From a virus (lineage: Duplodnaviria > Caudoviricetes), in IMG/VR virus record IMGVR_UViG_3300011480_000001, positions 1 through 64,000 of that record: a DNA stretch of 64,000 nucleotides. One strand, 5' to 3'. The notes under the pieces were generated by a model. It saw only the letters and a list, made by a program, of their open reading frames with translations. It was not told the DNA's origin and did not search any database. This document shows, in pieces, positions 12,190 through 51,277 of this stretch. Numbering within the stretch: the first letter of the stretch is position 1; each line of letters opens with the position of its first letter. The position numbers and the translations under genes were made by a program.

Positions 12190-12984
12190 TTAATAAAGCG
12201 TAATCTGTATATCTGATTCACTAAAACGATCAGAGTATGTTGGAACTGGGTTGTACATGTAGGGAAAATCATATGCGAAAGAAACACCATCGTAGGTGAA
12301 TGACCAACTGATTGGTTCATCTGTCCTTACATACTCCCCAAAAATAAGTCTTACTCCAACAGTTTTAGGAATAAGCCTCGAAGGATATCCACCAGAATCA
12401 TCTACATAATAGAGAAGCGCTTTCTCAAAATCAGAAAGTGGTCTGTTGAATAGCACCATAACTGTAGCTGGTTCTATGCTGGTGTCTTCAATAGCAATTG
12501 TGCTTTCTACACCAAATATAAGGTTGATTGCTTTAATAAACTCTTCAGATGTAGATGCTGTAGTATTCTTTAAAATCTTAGCCCTAATAAAAATACGGTA
12601 AGTATTATCATCTAAAAGAACATTCCCACCTAGCGGTTTACCTAAACTCCACCATTTAGCACCAATTGTAGGATCTGTGAGATTACCGTAGCTTCCTGCC
12701 TTTAAAGCACCCTGGAAACCAAAGAATTCATAAAGATCAGCGCTGAGTAATACTCTGTCTTGACCTACAATCCGCCCAATTACGTCAAGCTGTTCACCAG
12801 TTGCAGTGTCAAGACTTCTGAGTTGCATCAAATCTTGAAATGTCTTTTGTAGTGTCTGCATCTCAACTGTAAGCAATTGTAGATAGCGGTCAAAAACAGG
12901 AGCGTTTTCTAATTTGAATTGTTCTGTGGTGCGTGTTCTAGCTAGATCAAGATAGTCAACTTCTTGGAATTCGTTCGCTGCCAT
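12190..12984 (-). CDS. baseplate wedge protein (DUF2612-like)
   Basis: LDTATGEQLDVIGRIVG...YRIFIRAKILKN; follows baseplate J. Confidence 0.8.
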   Translation of the reverse strand: MAANEFQEVDYLDLARTRTTEQFKLENAPVFDRYLQLLTVEMQTLQKTFQDLMQLRSLDTATGEQLDVIGRIVGQDRVLLSADLYEFFGFQGALKAGSYGNLTDPTIGAKWWSLGKPLGGNVLLDDNTYRIFIRAKILKNTTASTSEEFIKAINLIFGVESTIAIEDTSIEPATVMVLFNRPLSDFEKALLYYVDDSGGYPSRLIPKTVGVRLIFGEYVRTDEPISWSFTYDGVSFAYDFPYMYNPVPTYSDRFSESDIQITLY

Positions 12985-12986
12985 AG

Positions 12987-14444
12987 TTACACACCGTTAA
13001 TTAAAATATTCGCAGCACTTATAGTTGCTAAAGCATCGAAGGGGATAGCAATATTGCTTGTTCCTGTTGGGCTTGGAGTTGTTCCGATTGTTAGGCTATC
13101 TACTTGGAAGTTTGGTACACTGTTAATTGGCGTATATAAACGGGAGTAAACAACATCATCTCCAATACCTTGGTTAGCATCAAAATATGCGATAACGGCA
13201 GACTTAATTTGATCTGGACCTGAGGCAGGGAAGTTAGGATCAGATGTGATAGTCATTGAAATATAAATAGGAATTGGATCTGGTCTTTGATATCCAATAA
13301 CATGGGCGTAGCCTTGACTGTCGTAAATAGTAACTTGAGTGTCACCAAAACTCTGAATGCCCATTGGCTTGTTTTCCCAAATCTTCAAAGCAATCTCACT
13401 TCCAACCCCACCCAAAAGGATCGGCATAAAGCTATGGGCCGGAACACCTTGAGCGTTTGTGGTGTTTGTGTCATTCTCATAGATGACTACCTCTTCCACT
13501 CCTTCAAGGTTGATTAATGCTGAGTACAAAGACTCGATGATATTACTAGCTCTTTCAAACTTGGCATTTCTAAACCTTTCTCTAAGCTCTTCATCCGTTT
13601 CAACATTACGCCCAAGAGTGGCAGAAACAATGTTTGTAACAGAGTCAAGTCCAATCACAGGCGTTAGGATATTGGTAATTGTATTTACATCGGCAGAAAT
13701 TGGACCTACAACAGAGGCTTGTGCTTCCCCAATCTTTATAACTTTTGAAATTGCTAGATTACTACTACTAGTAAAATCTACTGTTGAGAATTCATCCACC
13801 CTCTGTACATACAGGATACCTGTAGATCCGGCACCGCTGATGCTCGTAGACAGGGTTGGATGGCTTGATGTAATTACAGAGGCCATGCCTGCAATAATAG
13901 AGTCCCTTGTAGCTCCTACACCGCTTGTGTAGCTAACAGTGTTAGTGGTGCTTGTAGTAGCATAAGTCAGTGTGTATAACGTGCTATCGGATACTGTACT
14001 AGGGAACACACCAACACCAGTAGCCGATGTAGGAGTTAAACTCACGGTTGGCAGGAGTTGCCACTGGTATGCACTAACTGTAGAACCAAATACCAATCCC
14101 GCTGAAAGAGTAGTTCCATTATCCCCAGTTAAAAGCATTTGAGTTGTAGAAAATGTTTGTTGCTGTCTGACCAGTCCACCAAGAGCTACCAAGTTATCAA
14201 GAGCAATACCGGAAGCTGAGTTAGGATCAAAGGCAGAGTAAACTTGTTGTGCTACTTCCCATAGATCACTCAAAGGTTCAGAGATAATACCAATCATTCT
14301 GCCAATGGCAGAGCTATCGCTTGTATCTACCTGATCCCCGGTAGATACGAGGTCTTGAAAAGCATCAACACCACGTTGCCGTAATACTGCTAAGATTTCA
14401 GGGAGTCTTAAGATATCAAGACCACTATCTGTCAAACCTGCCAT
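12987..14444 (-). CDS. baseplate J-like wedge protein
   Basis: FDPNSASGIALD, G.NVETDEELRER, LEGV. Confidence 0.9.
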   Translation of the reverse strand: MAGLTDSGLDILRLPEILAVLRQRGVDAFQDLVSTGDQVDTSDSSAIGRMIGIISEPLSDLWEVAQQVYSAFDPNSASGIALDNLVALGGLVRQQQTFSTTQMLLTGDNGTTLSAGLVFGSTVSAYQWQLLPTVSLTPTSATGVGVFPSTVSDSTLYTLTYATTSTTNTVSYTSGVGATRDSIIAGMASVITSSHPTLSTSISGAGSTGILYVQRVDEFSTVDFTSSSNLAISKVIKIGEAQASVVGPISADVNTITNILTPVIGLDSVTNIVSATLGRNVETDEELRERFRNAKFERASNIIESLYSALINLEGVEEVVIYENDTNTTNAQGVPAHSFMPILLGGVGSEIALKIWENKPMGIQSFGDTQVTIYDSQGYAHVIGYQRPDPIPIYISMTITSDPNFPASGPDQIKSAVIAYFDANQGIGDDVVYSRLYTPINSVPNFQVDSLTIGTTPSPTGTSNIAIPFDALATISAANILINGV

Positions 14445-26287: not shown

Positions 26288-27355
26288 TTAGGTCAGGGAC
26301 AGACGCAGAATAGCACCGGGGTTCAGAACAGCGTTCAGGAAGTTCTGTTCGGTCATGATTTCGATGATATCGTCTTTTTCATTCAGATATTCGAAGAAGT
26401 AGCTACCTTGAGCACGACGGTTGATAGTACCGAAGCGGTTAGCAGGAGCGTAGTAGGTTTTCAGGAAGTTACGGATACCAACAGGCATCATGTAAGCATC
26501 GCCTTCTGGAATGAACGGTACAAATGTACCAGCAGCATTCTCGTAACCAGCAGCACCAGCGTTGATGAAGGTGATACCAAACACGCTCATCATTTCAAAG
26601 CGAGCATCAAGACCCGGAACATCAGCACCGCCAGCACCCAGCAGGATACGAGCAGCTTGGGTTTGATCTACATACTTGAAGGCATCAGTTACATAAGCGT
26701 TCTGTTGCAGAGCGTTGTAATAGCTATCGGAGCACAGAACAACGAATGCACGAACAGTACCGGCTTGACCATCACGCAGAGCGTTACGGGTAGCTTTCTT
26801 AGCGTCGTTATAAACAGCGCGTGGGTCAGCAGCAGCAGACAGGTCAGTTACAATCTCAGTACGTGTAACACCAAACTCAGTATAGAAGTTGGTAGCTACG
26901 GTAGCACGAGGAGCGTAAGCAGTACCTTGAGTGATAAGTTGCATACGAGCAGCTTCAAGGGTCAGACCATGAGCTTCACGAATATCAATCATCTTGTCGG
27001 CACGAACGGAAGCTACAGTTTCCAGTTCAGCAAACTCAGCCAGAGAACCAGCACGAACAATACCATCGATATCGTTAGGAGTGATTGCATCATCCAGAGG
27101 GAAGTGCGGGATCTTCAGCAAGAGGCTGTCAGATTCACGACCAGCGATAGTCTGGTTACGTTCGTCCCAGTTGCGATCTTCCAGCAGATGGGAGCCACGA
27201 GTGGTACGGGTAATTTCAACAGTCTTTTGAGTTGAATAAGTATCTTCAAACAGACCCAGAGCGTTAGTGATACCAACGGTGTTTGGGATTACAATTAGGG
27301 AATCGGTACGGTCAACAACTTTACCGGGATTCTGACGATCTAGTACAATAGCCAT
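26288..27355 (-). CDS. major capsid protein (lambda E-like)
   Basis: IPHFPLDDAITP, TLE..R, NFYTEFG, YYAPA; position. Confidence 0.9.
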   Translation of the reverse strand: MAIVLDRQNPGKVVDRTDSLIVIPNTVGITNALGLFEDTYSTQKTVEITRTTRGSHLLEDRNWDERNQTIAGRESDSLLLKIPHFPLDDAITPNDIDGIVRAGSLAEFAELETVASVRADKMIDIREAHGLTLEAARMQLITQGTAYAPRATVATNFYTEFGVTRTEIVTDLSAAADPRAVYNDAKKATRNALRDGQAGTVRAFVVLCSDSYYNALQQNAYVTDAFKYVDQTQAARILLGAGGADVPGLDARFEMMSVFGITFINAGAAGYENAAGTFVPFIPEGDAYMMPVGIRNFLKTYYAPANRFGTINRRAQGSYFFEYLNEKDDIIEIMTEQNFLNAVLNPGAILRLSLT

Positions 27356-27379
27356 ATTAGTTAATTATCCTTGTTTTAA

Positions 27380-27844
27380 TTAAAGGGTTTTCAGGACTTG
27401 GATGCCTTGTGCTTCCAGCAGACCTTTCAGGGTTTCAACCTGAGCGTCAGACAGAGCAGCACCGCCTTCCAGAACTGGAGACTTAGCAACTTGCTTGATG
27501 TAGTATTCTTTCAGTTGCAGAGCACCAGAAGTACCTACAAAACCTACGGCGTTGTACTGATTAGCAGCAATAGCGCGTGGGGTGAATGAAGGGTTGAAGC
27601 TATAATGATCGCCATAAACAACAGCGAATTCGTTAGTAGCTACCAGAGGAGCGGCACCGCCGAGTACAGTCCAAGCAGCAGTCAGATCGGCTGATTTAGC
27701 ACGATATACAACAGTACCAAGTTTAACTGGAACTGAGCCTGGGGTTACGTTAAGGTCACGACGGCTATAACCAACAGATGGATCTAGTTCGTGAACAACA
27801 AGGTCGGAGAAACGAGCTTGATAAGTTTCGGCAACAAATGGCAT
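27380..27844 (-). CDS. head decoration protein
   Basis: SDLV..E....YSR; between protease and capsid as lambda D. Confidence 0.75.
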   Translation of the reverse strand: MPFVAETYQARFSDLVVHELDPSVGYSRRDLNVTPGSVPVKLGTVVYRAKSADLTAAWTVLGGAAPLVATNEFAVVYGDHYSFNPSFTPRAIAANQYNAVGFVGTSGALQLKEYYIKQVAKSPVLEGGAALSDAQVETLKGLLEAQGIQVLKTL

Positions 27845-40392: not shown

Positions 40393-40767
40393 ATGAGCGA
40401 CGTACAAAAAGTTGTAAATGAGATTAACGAGAAACTGTTCAACGACCCTATATCTGAGACTGACTACTTCCGTTACCTTGAATACACAACTACACCTATT
40501 GGTGACTTCGTTAAATATATGGGGCACTTCATCTGGGACTCTGAGAATGATTACCGTGAATGGATTGATGATGAACAAGAACCACTGGAAGGTTATCTAG
40601 TCAAACAGATGATTGAAATCAATAAAGTAATTGTTAGCAGTCTTCGTGTTCTTGACAAACGATACAAAGCAATTGCCAAAGTAATGGATAACCGCTTGAA
40701 AGGTGATGGGTTGCGTGCAAATATTCTAGAACGCACACAAGAATTTGTAGATGGGCAGCGTAAATGA
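40393..40767 (+). CDS. hypothetical protein
   Basis: AAGGAG RBS. Confidence 0.75.
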   Translation: MSDVQKVVNEINEKLFNDPISETDYFRYLEYTTTPIGDFVKYMGHFIWDSENDYREWIDDEQEPLEGYLVKQMIEINKVIVSSLRVLDKRYKAIAKVMDNRLKGDGLRANILERTQEFVDGQRK

Positions 40768-43922: not shown

Positions 43923-44558
43923 TTGAGAGATTTAACTAATGAAAGATTCGGAATGCTATTAGTAGAGAGTCGGTCCGAAGAGAAACACAAAAGCGGTAGT
44001 ATTATTTGGAACTGCATATGTGATTGTGGTAATCAAATTTCACTGCCGTCACCTCGACTAATCCATTCGGGTAAAACAGATTGTGGTTGTCAGCCTAGAA
44101 AACTGAAAAGTCATGGAATGTACAACACACCTACTTATCGTTCATGGGTAAAACTATGCTGCCGTACAAGATATGATGAATATGCAGAATGGCACGGTGA
44201 TGTAGAAGTTTGTGAGAGATGGGATACTAGAAAAGGTGGCAGCTTCGACAATTTCTTAGAAGATATGGGAGAACGTCCCGAAGGTAAGACAATTAACAGG
44301 ATCAACGGTGCTAAGATTTACTCTAAAGAAACGTGTGAATGGGCTGATCTAAGTTTACAAGCTTTCGACCAGAGGAAAAAGAAAAATAATACTTCAGGTA
44401 AATCTGGTGTAAATTGGAATAAGGAAAAATCAAAATGGGAGGTTAGGATACACCAGAATGGTAAAACTATTCGACTAGGCTACTATGATGATTTTGAACT
44501 TGCTTGTTTTGTGCGTGAAGAAGCTGAACTAAAATATTATGGTTTTATCAAGGAGTAA
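43923..44558 (+). CDS. HNH/AP2 homing endonuclease (possibly degenerate)
   Basis: WNCICDCG, VCERW...F..DMGERP, NNTSG..GV.W, R..AE..Y. Confidence 0.8.
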   Translation: MRDLTNERFGMLLVESRSEEKHKSGSIIWNCICDCGNQISLPSPRLIHSGKTDCGCQPRKLKSHGMYNTPTYRSWVKLCCRTRYDEYAEWHGDVEVCERWDTRKGGSFDNFLEDMGERPEGKTINRINGAKIYSKETCEWADLSLQAFDQRKKKNNTSGKSGVNWNKEKSKWEVRIHQNGKTIRLGYYDDFELACFVREEAELKYYGFIKE

Positions 44559-44562
44559 CAAT

Positions 44563-45375
44563 ATGTCAGAAGAATTTATGATGCCAATGCTACAACCACT
44601 AGGTTCAAAAACCTTTACTACCGAAGTTCGTGGTCAACAACACACTTACTATCTCACTGGTGATGTGACAGAGCCAGATAACTACGTGGATCTTTGCAAC
44701 CTGCTTCGTTCCTGTTCGCCGCAAGACGAGGTGCTGATCCGAATCAACAGCCGAGGTGGATCTGTAGCAAGTGAACGAATGATTGTCAACGCGATTCAAG
44801 AATGTCAAGGTACCGTAGTTGCTTATATTGAGTATTTCTGTATGAGCGCTGCAACAGGAATCTTCTTGGCGGCGCACCATCATGCATGGGCTGAACATAT
44901 TCAATTCATGGTGCATTGCGCATTCTGGGGATCAATCGGTAAAAATCCTGACGTTAAGAGTCAGACAGAGTTCGGTGTAAAACAACTTGAAGAAGAAATT
45001 AACTCGACGTACAAGGGGCTACTCAGCGATGAAGAGCTAATTCAGTGCAACGAGGGGAAAGAATTCTGGTTTGGTGCAAAAGAACTAGAAGAACGTATGA
45101 AAAGTTTCCTTGAATATCGTAATTCTCTTCCTTGTGATTGCGGGTCGCCTGAATGCCCTCGTAGCCCTGAGAATATGGCTCTACTTGAAGAGGAAGAAGA
45201 TTTCGAAGTTCCAACTCTTGAGGATATTATCCAAAAGGCTGTAGAGGAAGGTGTGACCAAAGCTCTTGCTGAACGTGATCGAAAGGAAGCAAAAAAGAAA
45301 CCGGTAAAGCCAAAAGAGCCTAAAGTCCGAGTAATTAAAAACGAAAAAGTAATTTCTGGTGGTATTGAAGAATAA
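44563..45375 (+). CDS. ClpP-like protease
   Basis: INSRGGSV, CMSAAT (catalytic Ser), FMVH; start moved to MSEEF after AAGGAG. Confidence 0.85.
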   Translation: MSEEFMMPMLQPLGSKTFTTEVRGQQHTYYLTGDVTEPDNYVDLCNLLRSCSPQDEVLIRINSRGGSVASERMIVNAIQECQGTVVAYIEYFCMSAATGIFLAAHHHAWAEHIQFMVHCAFWGSIGKNPDVKSQTEFGVKQLEEEINSTYKGLLSDEELIQCNEGKEFWFGAKELEERMKSFLEYRNSLPCDCGSPECPRSPENMALLEEEEDFEVPTLEDIIQKAVEEGVTKALAERDRKEAKKKPVKPKEPKVRVIKNEKVISGGIEE

Positions 45376-46021: not shown

Positions 46022-46534
46022 ATGGCAGGTACAAAAGGTGTAAATCTAAAGCACGGTATGTCGCATAGCAGACCTTGGGTAATCTGGACCGACATGAAAC
46101 GTCGATGCAAAAATCCAGACAGAGCCGGTTTTGAGTTTTACGGTGATAAAGGTATTACATACCAAGCTTCTTGGGAAAAGTTTGAAGGATTTTGGGCAGA
46201 CATGCAGGATGGGTATGCGGATGACCTTACCCTAGAAAGGGTTGATCCTTCTGGTAACTACTGTAAAGAGAATTGTCGTTGGGCAACTAAGCAAGAACAA
46301 CCTAAGAATAAAAAGAAATATAAGAACAATAATACAGGTGTTGATGGGACTTATATCACGCTAAATAAGGGCATTGAAACACTGAAAGCTCACATTTCAG
46401 ATAATGGTAAGAGATATACTAAGAACTTCTCATTGAATAAATATTCCTTGGAAGAAGCGCTTGCTTTGGCTAGAGAATGGAGGATTGCTATGAAAGAAAA
46501 GTTTAACTATAGTGAATTCCATGGTATAGATTAA
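46022..46534 (+). CDS. HNH homing endonuclease with AP2-like C-terminus
   Basis: W..MK.RC.NP, YG.KGI, TLERVD.SGNY.KENCRWAT..EQ. Confidence 0.82.
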   Translation: MAGTKGVNLKHGMSHSRPWVIWTDMKRRCKNPDRAGFEFYGDKGITYQASWEKFEGFWADMQDGYADDLTLERVDPSGNYCKENCRWATKQEQPKNKKKYKNNNTGVDGTYITLNKGIETLKAHISDNGKRYTKNFSLNKYSLEEALALAREWRIAMKEKFNYSEFHGID

Positions 46535-47957: not shown

Positions 47958-48479
47958 GTGATTAACCTAGACGGAATCCGTGACAAGATTGATATTACTA
48001 AACTTGAAAAAGAATTTAGCAAAATTAAGAGGCATGAGTTCATGAAAGAGCAAGTAGAAATTAAAGATACTAAGATTCTGCAAACCCAAAGTGTTGATGC
48101 TTTTCTTGTAGAGTTGGGATATAAACGTACCAAGGACGGTAAACGGTATGAATTTGCTTACCCTGTAAAGACTGGTGAACGTTTTATCAGTATGCGTACA
48201 GCAATCGAGCTTCATAACACCGAGTGGATGTACGGGGAAGAATCAAAGTTGTACTACCCTATCTACTATTTCAAGGGTTTTAACTCAGATTTTTTGGTTG
48301 TAAAGCCAAACGTAGATTCTGTGTTCAAGCTTTCTCCATACGAATACGAGAAAAGCCAATCTCGTAAAATTGTATCTCGTGTATCTTTGCAGCAAACAAA
48401 GAATGGTGTTTTGAAGGTGCAGAAAAATCTTGTCGAATTTATGGCACCGTTTTATTTCGAGCAATTTTTGGAGGATTGA
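47958..48479 (+). CDS. hypothetical protein
   Basis: GGAG RBS, GTG start. Confidence 0.75.
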   Translation: MINLDGIRDKIDITKLEKEFSKIKRHEFMKEQVEIKDTKILQTQSVDAFLVELGYKRTKDGKRYEFAYPVKTGERFISMRTAIELHNTEWMYGEESKLYYPIYYFKGFNSDFLVVKPNVDSVFKLSPYEYEKSQSRKIVSRVSLQQTKNGVLKVQKNLVEFMAPFYFEQFLED

Positions 48480-48645
48480 TCATGATGCCATCTACTGAAC
48501 GTGAATACAGAGAAAAGATTAAACAAGCAGAACACAAAGCTACAGAGAACTATTTTCTTGGACTTCGTAAGGCATTAGGTGTTGTTAATCGTGCTGACTA
48601 TCTTACAGAAGAACAGAAGCAGAAGCTTGCAGAGGATTTCTTGAA

Positions 48646-48915
48646 ATGATTGAAGAGCTTGAACAAAATATTTTACAATTAGAGGGAGTGGACTTCGTTC
48701 ACATAACAGAAAACAGGAGTTGTGTTTACGATAAAAAGAAAGGACTACCACCTCTAAGCTTTAAGCTGTATGTTAGGGGCGGTAAGAAGAAAGAAATTGC
48801 CGAAATCCTGTGGTTATATAAACCACTTGGTACCTTGTCTATAGGGAATACATCTGTTAAGGTAAAAGACTGATACGGTTACAAATGGGAAGTGAACTTC
48901 GAGAGGCTTTTGTAA
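48646..48915 (+). pseudogene. stand-alone baseplate-J domain homolog with in-frame TGA at 48871-48873
   Basis: 29/74 identities by hand to the phage's own baseplate J (13281-13538); similarity continues past the TGA to TAA at 48913-48915. Confidence 0.75.
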
Positions 48916-49121
48916 TGATTGAGTTAAAACTTGTACCAGAATATGACAACCCTACAGACGAAGAGCGTAAGGAGATTTTTGAATACTACCGTAGAATCAT
49001 TGTCAATGCGCAAGAGAATGCACGGGGTGCTATCCTAGATATGTGCGGGAATAAGGTTTGGGTAGAGACTATTGAAGAGTATGAAGCACGAATGGAGAAA
49101 ATGAAGAATGACAACCGATAA
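48915..49121 (+). CDS. hypothetical protein
   Basis: GAGAGG RBS, TAATG overlap at MIELK. Confidence 0.68.
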   Translation: MIELKLVPEYDNPTDEERKEIFEYYRRIIVNAQENARGAILDMCGNKVWVETIEEYEARMEKMKNDNR

Positions 49122-49323
49122 TTTAAAACAAATCCGCCTGACAAACATTAACAATAAACCTGAACTTTACATTGATGGTCTAATTATCCTTGACAAGATA
49201 AATTCAGTATATTTCCAAGACGCTATTTATCGAGCGCGTAATAATGAAATCGTGACAAGTAGCGGAAGGCAGAGTATCATCAGTCTTGTGCAACGTGGAC
49301 TACCTGTTTACTATTTGAGTTGA
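49108..49323 (+). CDS. hypothetical protein
   Basis: Overlapping ORF in operon. Confidence 0.62.
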   Translation: MTTDNLKQIRLTNINNKPELYIDGLIILDKINSVYFQDAIYRARNNEIVTSSGRQSIISLVQRGLPVYYLS

Positions 49324-50896: not shown

Positions 50897-51277
50897 ATGT
50901 TAGCTGACATTACACCAGAGCAACGTCAGTTGTACTTAGAACAAGGTCGTATTGCACGACAAGAGAAAATTAAATGGGCCACTGAAAACCTGGATATGGA
51001 TTGGGGAGAGGATGAGAAGGAGTGGAAACGCCTTGCTTCCTTATACGAAGTCAAACTTCCTCAGAAGCATATTCCAAACTATCAATTGAAATATGTAAAA
51101 CGTATGATGAAAGCTGTTGGTGCTGATGTACAAGAATATGCTGAATCTTGTGGTTGCAAAAATCTATTACAGCTTGCTAAACTGAATCCTAGAGAGAATG
51201 CACGAGCTTTCTGTGGGCTGTTCCTTGAGTATTGGCATGAATTACAGACAGATCCTGTTGAATATGAGGAGGATTGA
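50897..51277 (+). CDS. hypothetical protein
   Basis: GAGG RBS. Confidence 0.72.
   Translation: MLADITPEQRQLYLEQGRIARQEKIKWATENLDMDWGEDEKEWKRLASLYEVKLPQKHIPNYQLKYVKRMMKAVGADVQEYAESCGCKNLLQLAKLNPRENARAFCGLFLEYWHELQTDPVEYEED

Follow-up and report, generated by a model that had tools for sequence, protein, structure and literature searches.

The gene at 48646-48915 is, with high confidence, a conserved accessory phage gene whose sole domain is the penultimate alpha/beta domain of gp6/J-type baseplate wedge proteins, and it stands for a family of such genes. The name mini-J was coined here for this stand-alone single-domain gene and for its family, while J denotes the full-length wedge proteins. 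What appears to be new, judged from sequence comparison, is a known J domain in a conserved, stand-alone and re-surfaced form. The copy described here lies in the first 64 kb, called the window below, of the IMG/VR virus record G000 (91,262 bp, with terminal repeats and 40% G+C), and it is interrupted by an in-frame TGA. The coordinates of the gene, of its neighbours and of the resident J gene are collected in Table 1.

Table 1 Features of the mini-J locus and of the resident J gene in the window
Feature	Position	Strand	Basis
Full-length Baseplate-J (T4 gp6-like) wedge protein, 485 aa	12987..14444	-	Pfam PF04865, E 1e-10
J domain homologous to mini-J, residues 302-388	13281..13541	-	BLASTP, hhalign
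Upstream 57-aa ORF, stop overlaps mini-J start (ATGA)	48476..48649	+	95% identical in G001; in 7/13 loci
Ancestral 89-codon mini-J ORF; single alpha/beta domain homologous to J residues 300-389	48646..48915	+	Intact 89-aa orthologs, AF2, hhalign
Mini-J ORF as in the record, 75 codons + TGA	48646..48873	+	ORF reading
GGKKK loop, strand 2/helix 2 junction, family hallmark	48778..48792	+	Family alignment
Premature TGA (codon 76)	48871..48873	+	CGA, CGG or CGC (Arg76) in relatives
Cut-off tail, 13 sense codons + TAA; last beta-strand (model residues 80-87)	48874..48915	+	Identical to nearest intact orthologs
Downstream 68-aa ORF, start overlaps ancestral mini-J stop	48915..49121	+	99% identical in G001

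The structural module of this genome is on the minus strand, from ~7 to 38 kb, with the baseplate genes at 12-16 kb on the same strand. The J protein encoded there matches the solved gp88 of PDB 9zd7, a close relative (E 7e-120), and its nearest counterparts among sequenced phages are those of Pseudomonas phages of the Otagovirus/Pakpunavirus type (45-52% identity). The original prediction, made from the sequence of the window, had placed the mini-J start ATG at 48646, the TGA, and the ancestral TAA (48913-48915), which overlaps the next ATG (TAATG, 48913-48917), exactly where they are found. It had also aligned mini-J by hand with the phage's own J at 29 identities in 74 positions. BLASTP of the 75-aa product against the 485-aa J reproduced this closely, with 29/75 residues identical to J residues 302-375 (E 7e-13). 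The further claim that the similarity runs on beyond the TGA was borne out as well: when the stop was read as X, the 89-residue frame aligned with J over query residues 2-87, and the tblastn matches to Pakpunavirus J proteins spanned residues 14-87, across the stop. At the level of primary structure the similarity between mini-J and J is evidently far above chance.

Mini-J is homologous to the Baseplate J/T4 gp6 wedge protein (PF04865) both in sequence and in fold. Comparison of the two family profiles with hhalign gave a probability of 99.8% and an E value of 1.7e-27 over 90 columns, corresponding to J residues 300-389, and the mini-J profile matched gp88 of the PDB entry with E 1e-18. In fold, the Z scores against wedge proteins of this class were 9.7-15.7. 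The AF2 model of the 89-aa mini-J was confident (pLDDT 94.8), with helices at residues 2-10 and 48-58 and strands at residues 15-23, 38-45, 64-66, 69-74 and 80-87. The closest structure was Pam3 gp22 (Z 15.7, rmsd 1.2 A over 87 residues), and Foldseek, which had been suggested as a check of the original prediction, gave an E value of 4e-8 for the wedge protein fold. PhiTE (Z 12.2), Bas63 (Z 11.9), XM1 (Z 11.7) and E217 (Z 9.7) followed, and the wedge proteins of pyocin R2 and Mu gave Z 5.7-6.1. All high-scoring structural matches were wedge proteins. The aligned ranges were residues 110-196 of 299 in Pam3 gp22, 293-380 in Bas63 wedge 2, 305-393 in PhiTE wedge 2, 200-308 in XM1 and 205-309 in E217 gp44, with the weaker matches covering 197-277 in Mu gp47 and 133-202 in pyocin R2.

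Every solved J-type protein has the domain directly before a C-terminal domain of ~100 aa, and in the J of the window it is likewise penultimate, followed by a C-terminal domain of ~97 aa at residues 389-485. Mini-J differs from J in consisting of this one domain, without the N-terminal core-bundle helices or the C-terminal domain, and because these are missing it cannot be a wedge subunit. Further differences from J are its basic charge, the GGKKK motif, the location of its gene in the non-structural block and a score below the threshold of the Pfam model. Beyond baseplate proteins (ranks 12-43) the fold resembled ferredoxin-like modules at a background Z of ~5, such as the C-terminal domains of cation-diffusion transporters, HMA metal-binding domains and the ring-building motifs of EscJ and CdsD of type III secretion. 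Matches to glyoxalase/VOC proteins in the ESM Atlas (scores 0.87-0.89) were rejected, as they were below the trust level and had no support from Foldseek or VIA.

The mini-J family comprised at least 46 clusters in the profile search, with proteins of 84-108 aa that were 35-56% identical to the reference. All members end two to five residues past the F-E-R motif, giving a uniform C-terminal end, and several come from contigs 85-91 kb in length. When 1.8 billion representatives were searched exhaustively with HMMER, other proteins of ~90 aa ranked at the top and the 480-aa J proteins behind them. In a maximum-likelihood tree of the domain, which was short and midpoint-rooted, the 15 stand-alone sequences formed one clade (support 100/97, stem length 0.6). 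Since the stand-alone sequences group together in this way and the J of the window falls elsewhere, the tree indicates a single old origin of the family from a J gene and no recent local duplication, in agreement with the original view that mini-J is not a recent duplicate of the resident J. The window copy shares with the family the single domain of 84-108 aa, the GGKKK loop and the basic charge, and it is 91-96% identical to the aligned intact members.

Ten pairs of close orthologs with dS 0.37-1.3 gave dN/dS values of 0.015-0.08 (dN 0.010-0.039). The ratios were taken from pairs with dS >=0.37, as nearer pairs had too few changes for a stable ratio. A lack of intact orthologs and a dN/dS near 1 had been named in advance as the signs of a decaying fragment, and the opposite was found on both counts. 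The family is, by this measure, under strong purifying selection. At least two members are aberrant alleles: P0021 (49 aa, on four contigs of up to 25.9 kb) ends right after GGKKK, and in P0025 (104 aa, on a contig of 90,150 bp) the C-terminal half is unrelated, suggesting a frameshift or a fusion.

General-purpose models miss the family. PF04865 matched 0/46 members at E up to 1, nor did it match the protein of the window, which had no Pfam match at all, and the members scanned had no match among the PHROG, NCBIfam and PADLOC models. Because mini-J is invisible to Pfam and PHROGs, it is annotated as hypothetical everywhere. Among 50,697 phage records no stand-alone mini-J was found; four tblastn queries returned full-length J genes only. 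Similarly, all 18 significant hits of a Foldseek search of BFVD were full-length J proteins. A pattern scan for close relatives of the member P0002 turned up a single one in IMG/VR, and it gave no match in the collection of bacterial and archaeal genomes. In the Paenibacillus phage Pd_22F (MZ092003.1, 86 kb; L029-L031), two J-like genes lie ~7 kb apart, their open frames being 348 and 388 aa long. This record, which gave two hits, was rejected as a carrier of a stand-alone mini-J, as both genes are full-length and J-like.

The surface of mini-J has changed considerably compared to that of the parent domain. The lysines K47-K49 of the GGKKK loop are at least 90% conserved in the 46 family members. 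At the three positions after the GG turn, where helix 2 starts, mini-J has Lys and J mostly has Asp, Asn, Ser or Gln. The net charge of mini-J is +4.5 +/- 2.3 (n=46; median pI ~9.4) and that of the homologous J domain -5.1 +/- 2.8 (n=50 J proteins). On average each of the four parts of J is acidic; for the C-terminal domain the mean charge is -7.7, with a positive value in 0/50 J proteins. Mini-J has kept from J the elements G-V, N-x-T, D29, LPP-S, GG, IA, W, K-P-G, G-N-T, D75, G78 and F-x-R, and most of the conserved polar J positions (N23, T25, D29, S38, K59, N68, T69, D75 and R87) are among those retained. Gly, Pro and core positions make up the greater part of the residues shared with J, and the fold alone may account for them.

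The original prediction had put the original gene at about 89 codons, and the intact 89-aa orthologs confirm this length. Close relatives on record, namely the 25 proteins of one 90%-identity cluster together with P0207 and the copy carried by G001, a relative in IMG/VR, were intact in 27/27 cases (89-90 aa, 91-97% identical to the window copy). P0207 has the same distinctive N-terminus as the window copy, yet is intact. Codon 76 encodes Arg in all 17 close relatives read; at the DNA level the nearest relatives (L005 and L011) have CGA where the window has TGA, and others CGG or CGC. As this single CGA to TGA difference is followed by 13 codons identical to those of L005 and L011, the stop is either a very recent private C>T change or a base-call error. 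The part of the original prediction that took the TGA to be recent was thus upheld, whereas its suggestion of read-through was not. Recoding was rejected, since TGA is an ordinary stop codon, ending 55 of 166 ORFs (those >=60 aa chosen by a simple longest-ORF rule), and the whole 91-kb genome contains no tRNA genes.

The frame past the TGA is otherwise intact. The stop removes residues 76-89, and the window copy consequently lacks the complete domain with the last beta-strand and the F-E-R end. As the deleted strand contains F85 and R87, which are nearly invariant in both the mini-J and the J families, the 75-aa product is predicted to be unstable or inactive. The window copy is most likely a fresh null allele and less likely the result of a base-call error. 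The exact 75-aa product has been recorded from both JGI/IMG and a Logan assembly, which mildly favours a real C>T change. It could also be that the TGA is absent from the phage, being a sequencing or consensus error or a minority variant, and that the normal 89-aa protein is made. We give this a low probability, and it is independent of what the protein does. The codon is one base from the CGA of the closest relatives with the downstream codons untouched, and all other sequences in the two 90% clusters nearest the window copy are intact, as would be expected from an error. The same product in two assemblies speaks against it, although both may derive from the same reads, as does the existence of other aberrant alleles in the family.

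The location of mini-J is separate from that of the baseplate genes. A long plus-strand block of small ORFs starts at 38.8 kb and contains genes for PhoH, a ClpP-like protein, an HNH endonuclease, dCMP deaminase and a DUF7390 protein. All 13 mini-J loci read had the gene within a same-strand array of small ORFs in the non-structural block, usually with overlapping stop and start codons, and DnaB-type helicase, RNase H, ThyX, DNA or RNA ligase, dCMP deaminase, PhoH and DUF7390 were encoded nearby. None of the 13 had mini-J beside baseplate genes. In the window, the gp25/W-like and gp7/DUF2612-like genes of the baseplate module are not adjacent to it (minus strand at 12-16 kb versus plus strand at 48.6 kb); the gp7/DUF2612-like protein is encoded at 12190-12984. 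Across the diverged mini-J loci no consistently co-conserved neighbour was found, and a scan for promoters and terminators around mini-J gave results at background level. From the position of the gene, we infer that mini-J is expressed early.

Comparison of G000 with its relative G001 (87,438 bp) was informative on how mini-J spreads. Identity is 38-66% for most structural proteins of the two, and many accessory genes lack a counterpart. Between the J proteins it is 54-55% over the full length and 63% within the homologous domain. The two mini-J proteins, on the other hand, are 94% identical, and the cassette 48476-49323, consisting of the 57-aa ORF, mini-J, the 68-aa ORF and a 71-aa ORF, is 83-99% identical. 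The regions 26288-27844, 40393-40767 and 44539-45375 are also 83-99% identical to G001 at the protein level. The patchwork of similarity points to recent recombination between diverged phages. Because the cassette is so much more similar than the J genes are, mini-J is exchanged horizontally in a small cassette and does not co-evolve with the resident J. Conflict genes that are useful only under certain conditions typically show this combination of strong constraint, mobility and sporadic loss.

What the domain does in baseplates is suggested by solved structures. In Mu and E217, adjacent wedges are linked by a 'handshake' of two J conformers (PMC11915804; PMC10329688). In Pam3, Cys187 of gp22 is disulfide-bonded to Cys215 of gp22 in the adjacent trifurcation unit (PMC9942802), and Cys187 falls within the range 110-196 that aligns with mini-J. 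The domain of which mini-J is a free copy thus probably lies at the wedge-to-wedge contact. The Pam3 wedge protein has been described as having no insertion domains, and since it has this domain, the domain belongs to the conserved core. For the same reason we suspect that it differs from the 'pin domain' of E217, Pa193 or Mu. A host-range paper on GP075 of phage K8 was rejected as a J parallel, as it concerns a DUF2612 wedge protein.

The function that we tentatively put first is that of a soluble mimic of the wedge interface, used for anti-defence or in inter-phage competition. A free, basic mini-J, made outside the late structural programme, would bind an acidic wedge-type surface. This surface may belong to J, in its C-terminal domain, to the gp7-like partner or to a host sensor with a J-like scaffold, and the binding would control which molecules engage the wedge subunits. 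The ancestry from J and the retained J signature residues agree with this, as does the fact that the only known job of the domain is protein contact in the wedge ring. The basic surface would face wedge proteins that are uniformly acidic. The behaviour of the gene resembles that seen in an arms race, with at least two other aberrant alleles (P0021 and P0025), and contested wedge interfaces have a precedent in DruH (PMC13192584).

Several observations nevertheless weigh against a wedge mimic. The charge inversion and the lysine triplet would fit nucleic-acid binding equally well, and a faithful decoy would be expected to preserve the surface of J, which mini-J did not. A broad poison of J wedges must spare the phage's own J, and the same mini-J coexists with J domains that are only 63% identical. 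There is also no co-conserved neighbour that would hint at a partner. A complex prediction of mini-J with J residues 236-485, run without controls, scored 0.00 and does not weigh on either side as regards binding.

The forms that such mimicry could take are, one by one, less probable than the mimicry as such. Shielding or decoying against defence seems to us a fairly unlikely one when considered singly, interference with rival myophages of the same J class by capping of their wedges a still less likely one, and other forms would be very improbable. Felixounavirus phages such as Bas63, Pakpunavirus and Otagovirus have a J of this class. The tailocins and T6SS named in the original prediction are less likely targets, because the domain is structurally nearer to the ~480-aa J class (Z 9.7-15.7) than to pyocin R2 and Mu (Z 5.7-6.1). 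The most far-reaching version is that mini-J would be the first phage-encoded soluble wedge-domain mimic, made before the late genes, which either hides baseplate intermediates from immunity that senses structural proteins or caps the wedges of co-infecting myophages. Mini-J would then sit on the surface through which wedge subunits bind J, or on the J-like bait of a sensor such as the Druantia III protein DruH. We regard this version as doubtful.

Only slightly less probable than wedge mimicry is a target outside the baseplate. The J domain would then have been exapted as a stable ferredoxin-like scaffold, with the basic face and the GGKKK loop as a binding site for nucleic acid, for a nucleotide or phosphate, or for a host protein in early or middle takeover or in replication. 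The inverted charge (+4.5, median pI ~9.4, compared to -5 in the parent domain) would be well explained in this way. The near-invariant K47-K49 are at the N-terminus of a helix, an arrangement which often binds anions and may do so here. The neighbouring genes for DnaB-type helicase, RNase H, ligases, ThyX, dCMP deaminase and PhoH, and the lack of co-evolution between mini-J and the resident J, are likewise in keeping with a binder outside the baseplate, and outside wedge proteins the fold is like that of generic ferredoxin-like domains. These latter structural matches were, however, at background (Z ~5), and there were no matches to nucleic-acid-binding families in Pfam, NCBIfam or PHROGs. 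Most of the conserved polar positions of J have been kept, which would be needless for a pure scaffold unless they are structural.

We find it quite improbable that mini-J serves the phage's own baseplate, either as an assembly cap or chaperone covering the wedge-to-wedge surface of J until the hub is ready, or as a minor virion component. The only known role of the domain is indeed within the wedge ring, and G000 and G001 both encode a full-length J of the same class. However, in all 13 loci the gene belongs to the non-structural block, on the opposite strand to the baseplate genes and tens of kilobases away from them, and its exchange between phages is independent of the structural module. 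At least three lineages have truncated or altered copies, which would be unusual for an essential assembly factor, and the gene is missing from the cultured relatives searched, whose baseplates are of the same type. That mini-J is a functionless, decaying fragment of a duplicated J gene is extremely improbable and could at most hold for this single allele: the in-frame stop in the window copy and the two truncated or altered members would fit decay, but for the family it is refuted by a dN/dS of 0.015-0.08 at dS up to 1.3, by at least 46 diverged clusters that share their domain boundaries and contain no further remnants of J, by a single stand-alone clade with a derived conserved motif, and by a domain model that is confident and complete. 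The probability remaining after wedge mimicry, binding outside the baseplate, service to the own baseplate and decay falls to none of these.

Known systems offer parallels to the favoured wedge mimicry. A 2026 preprint reports that DruH, the sensor of Druantia III, has a J-like scaffold and that a gp7-like wedge subunit, to which the escape mutation maps, co-precipitates weakly with it (PMC13192584). The N-terminal part of DruH is like mini-J in that a J-family fold is used outside the baseplate as a soluble recognition module, as is proposed for mini-J. DruH differs from mini-J in being a large protein of the host that includes Ig-like domains and a nuclease region. As mini-J had no detectable match to the PADLOC models, no link to defence systems is seen in its sequence. 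Tab and Tai are tail-assembly interference proteins of prophages and PICIs (PMC10884400, PMC11364771). They may serve as an analogue for one of the proposed mechanisms, a small protein blocking the tail assembly of a competitor, but their genes belong to prophages or host elements, they have not been described as derived from virion domains, and no homology to mini-J was found.

The early and accessory regions of phages contain many small unknown genes, among which mini-J has a clear ancestry. It offers a sharp choice that is cheap to test, between wedge proteins or J-like immune sensors on the one hand and nucleic acid on the other as the ligand, and it ties in with the recently reported J-like scaffold of DruH. 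Should mini-J act on wedge interfaces, it would represent a new, virion-derived class of anti-defence or inter-phage competition proteins. If it does not, it would be a clean case of a structural domain that has been re-used.

Some minor observations were made on the genome and on the surroundings of the gene. An exact direct repeat of 104 bp is common to both ends of G000, and it may either stem from overlap in the assembly of a circularly permuted genome or be a short terminal repeat. Just upstream of the dCMP deaminase gene, at 46022-46534, the window encodes an HNH endonuclease with a weak match to the AP2 domain, which is probably a homing-type endonuclease in a mosaic region. The 68-aa ORF is absent in L004 and L008, where the 71-aa ORF (49108-49323 in the window) directly follows mini-J, and the difference is an indel of a whole small gene. 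The gene at 47958-48479 encodes the DUF7390 protein (Pfam E 9e-24; phrog_2686); in close relatives it is often found upstream of mini-J, and it was also seen in the distant L019 and L021. The 126-aa ORF at 50897-51277 (phrog_21723) is directly downstream of mini-J in L015 and 1.4 kb upstream of it in L021, and it is the only neighbour of mini-J shared beyond the close cluster.
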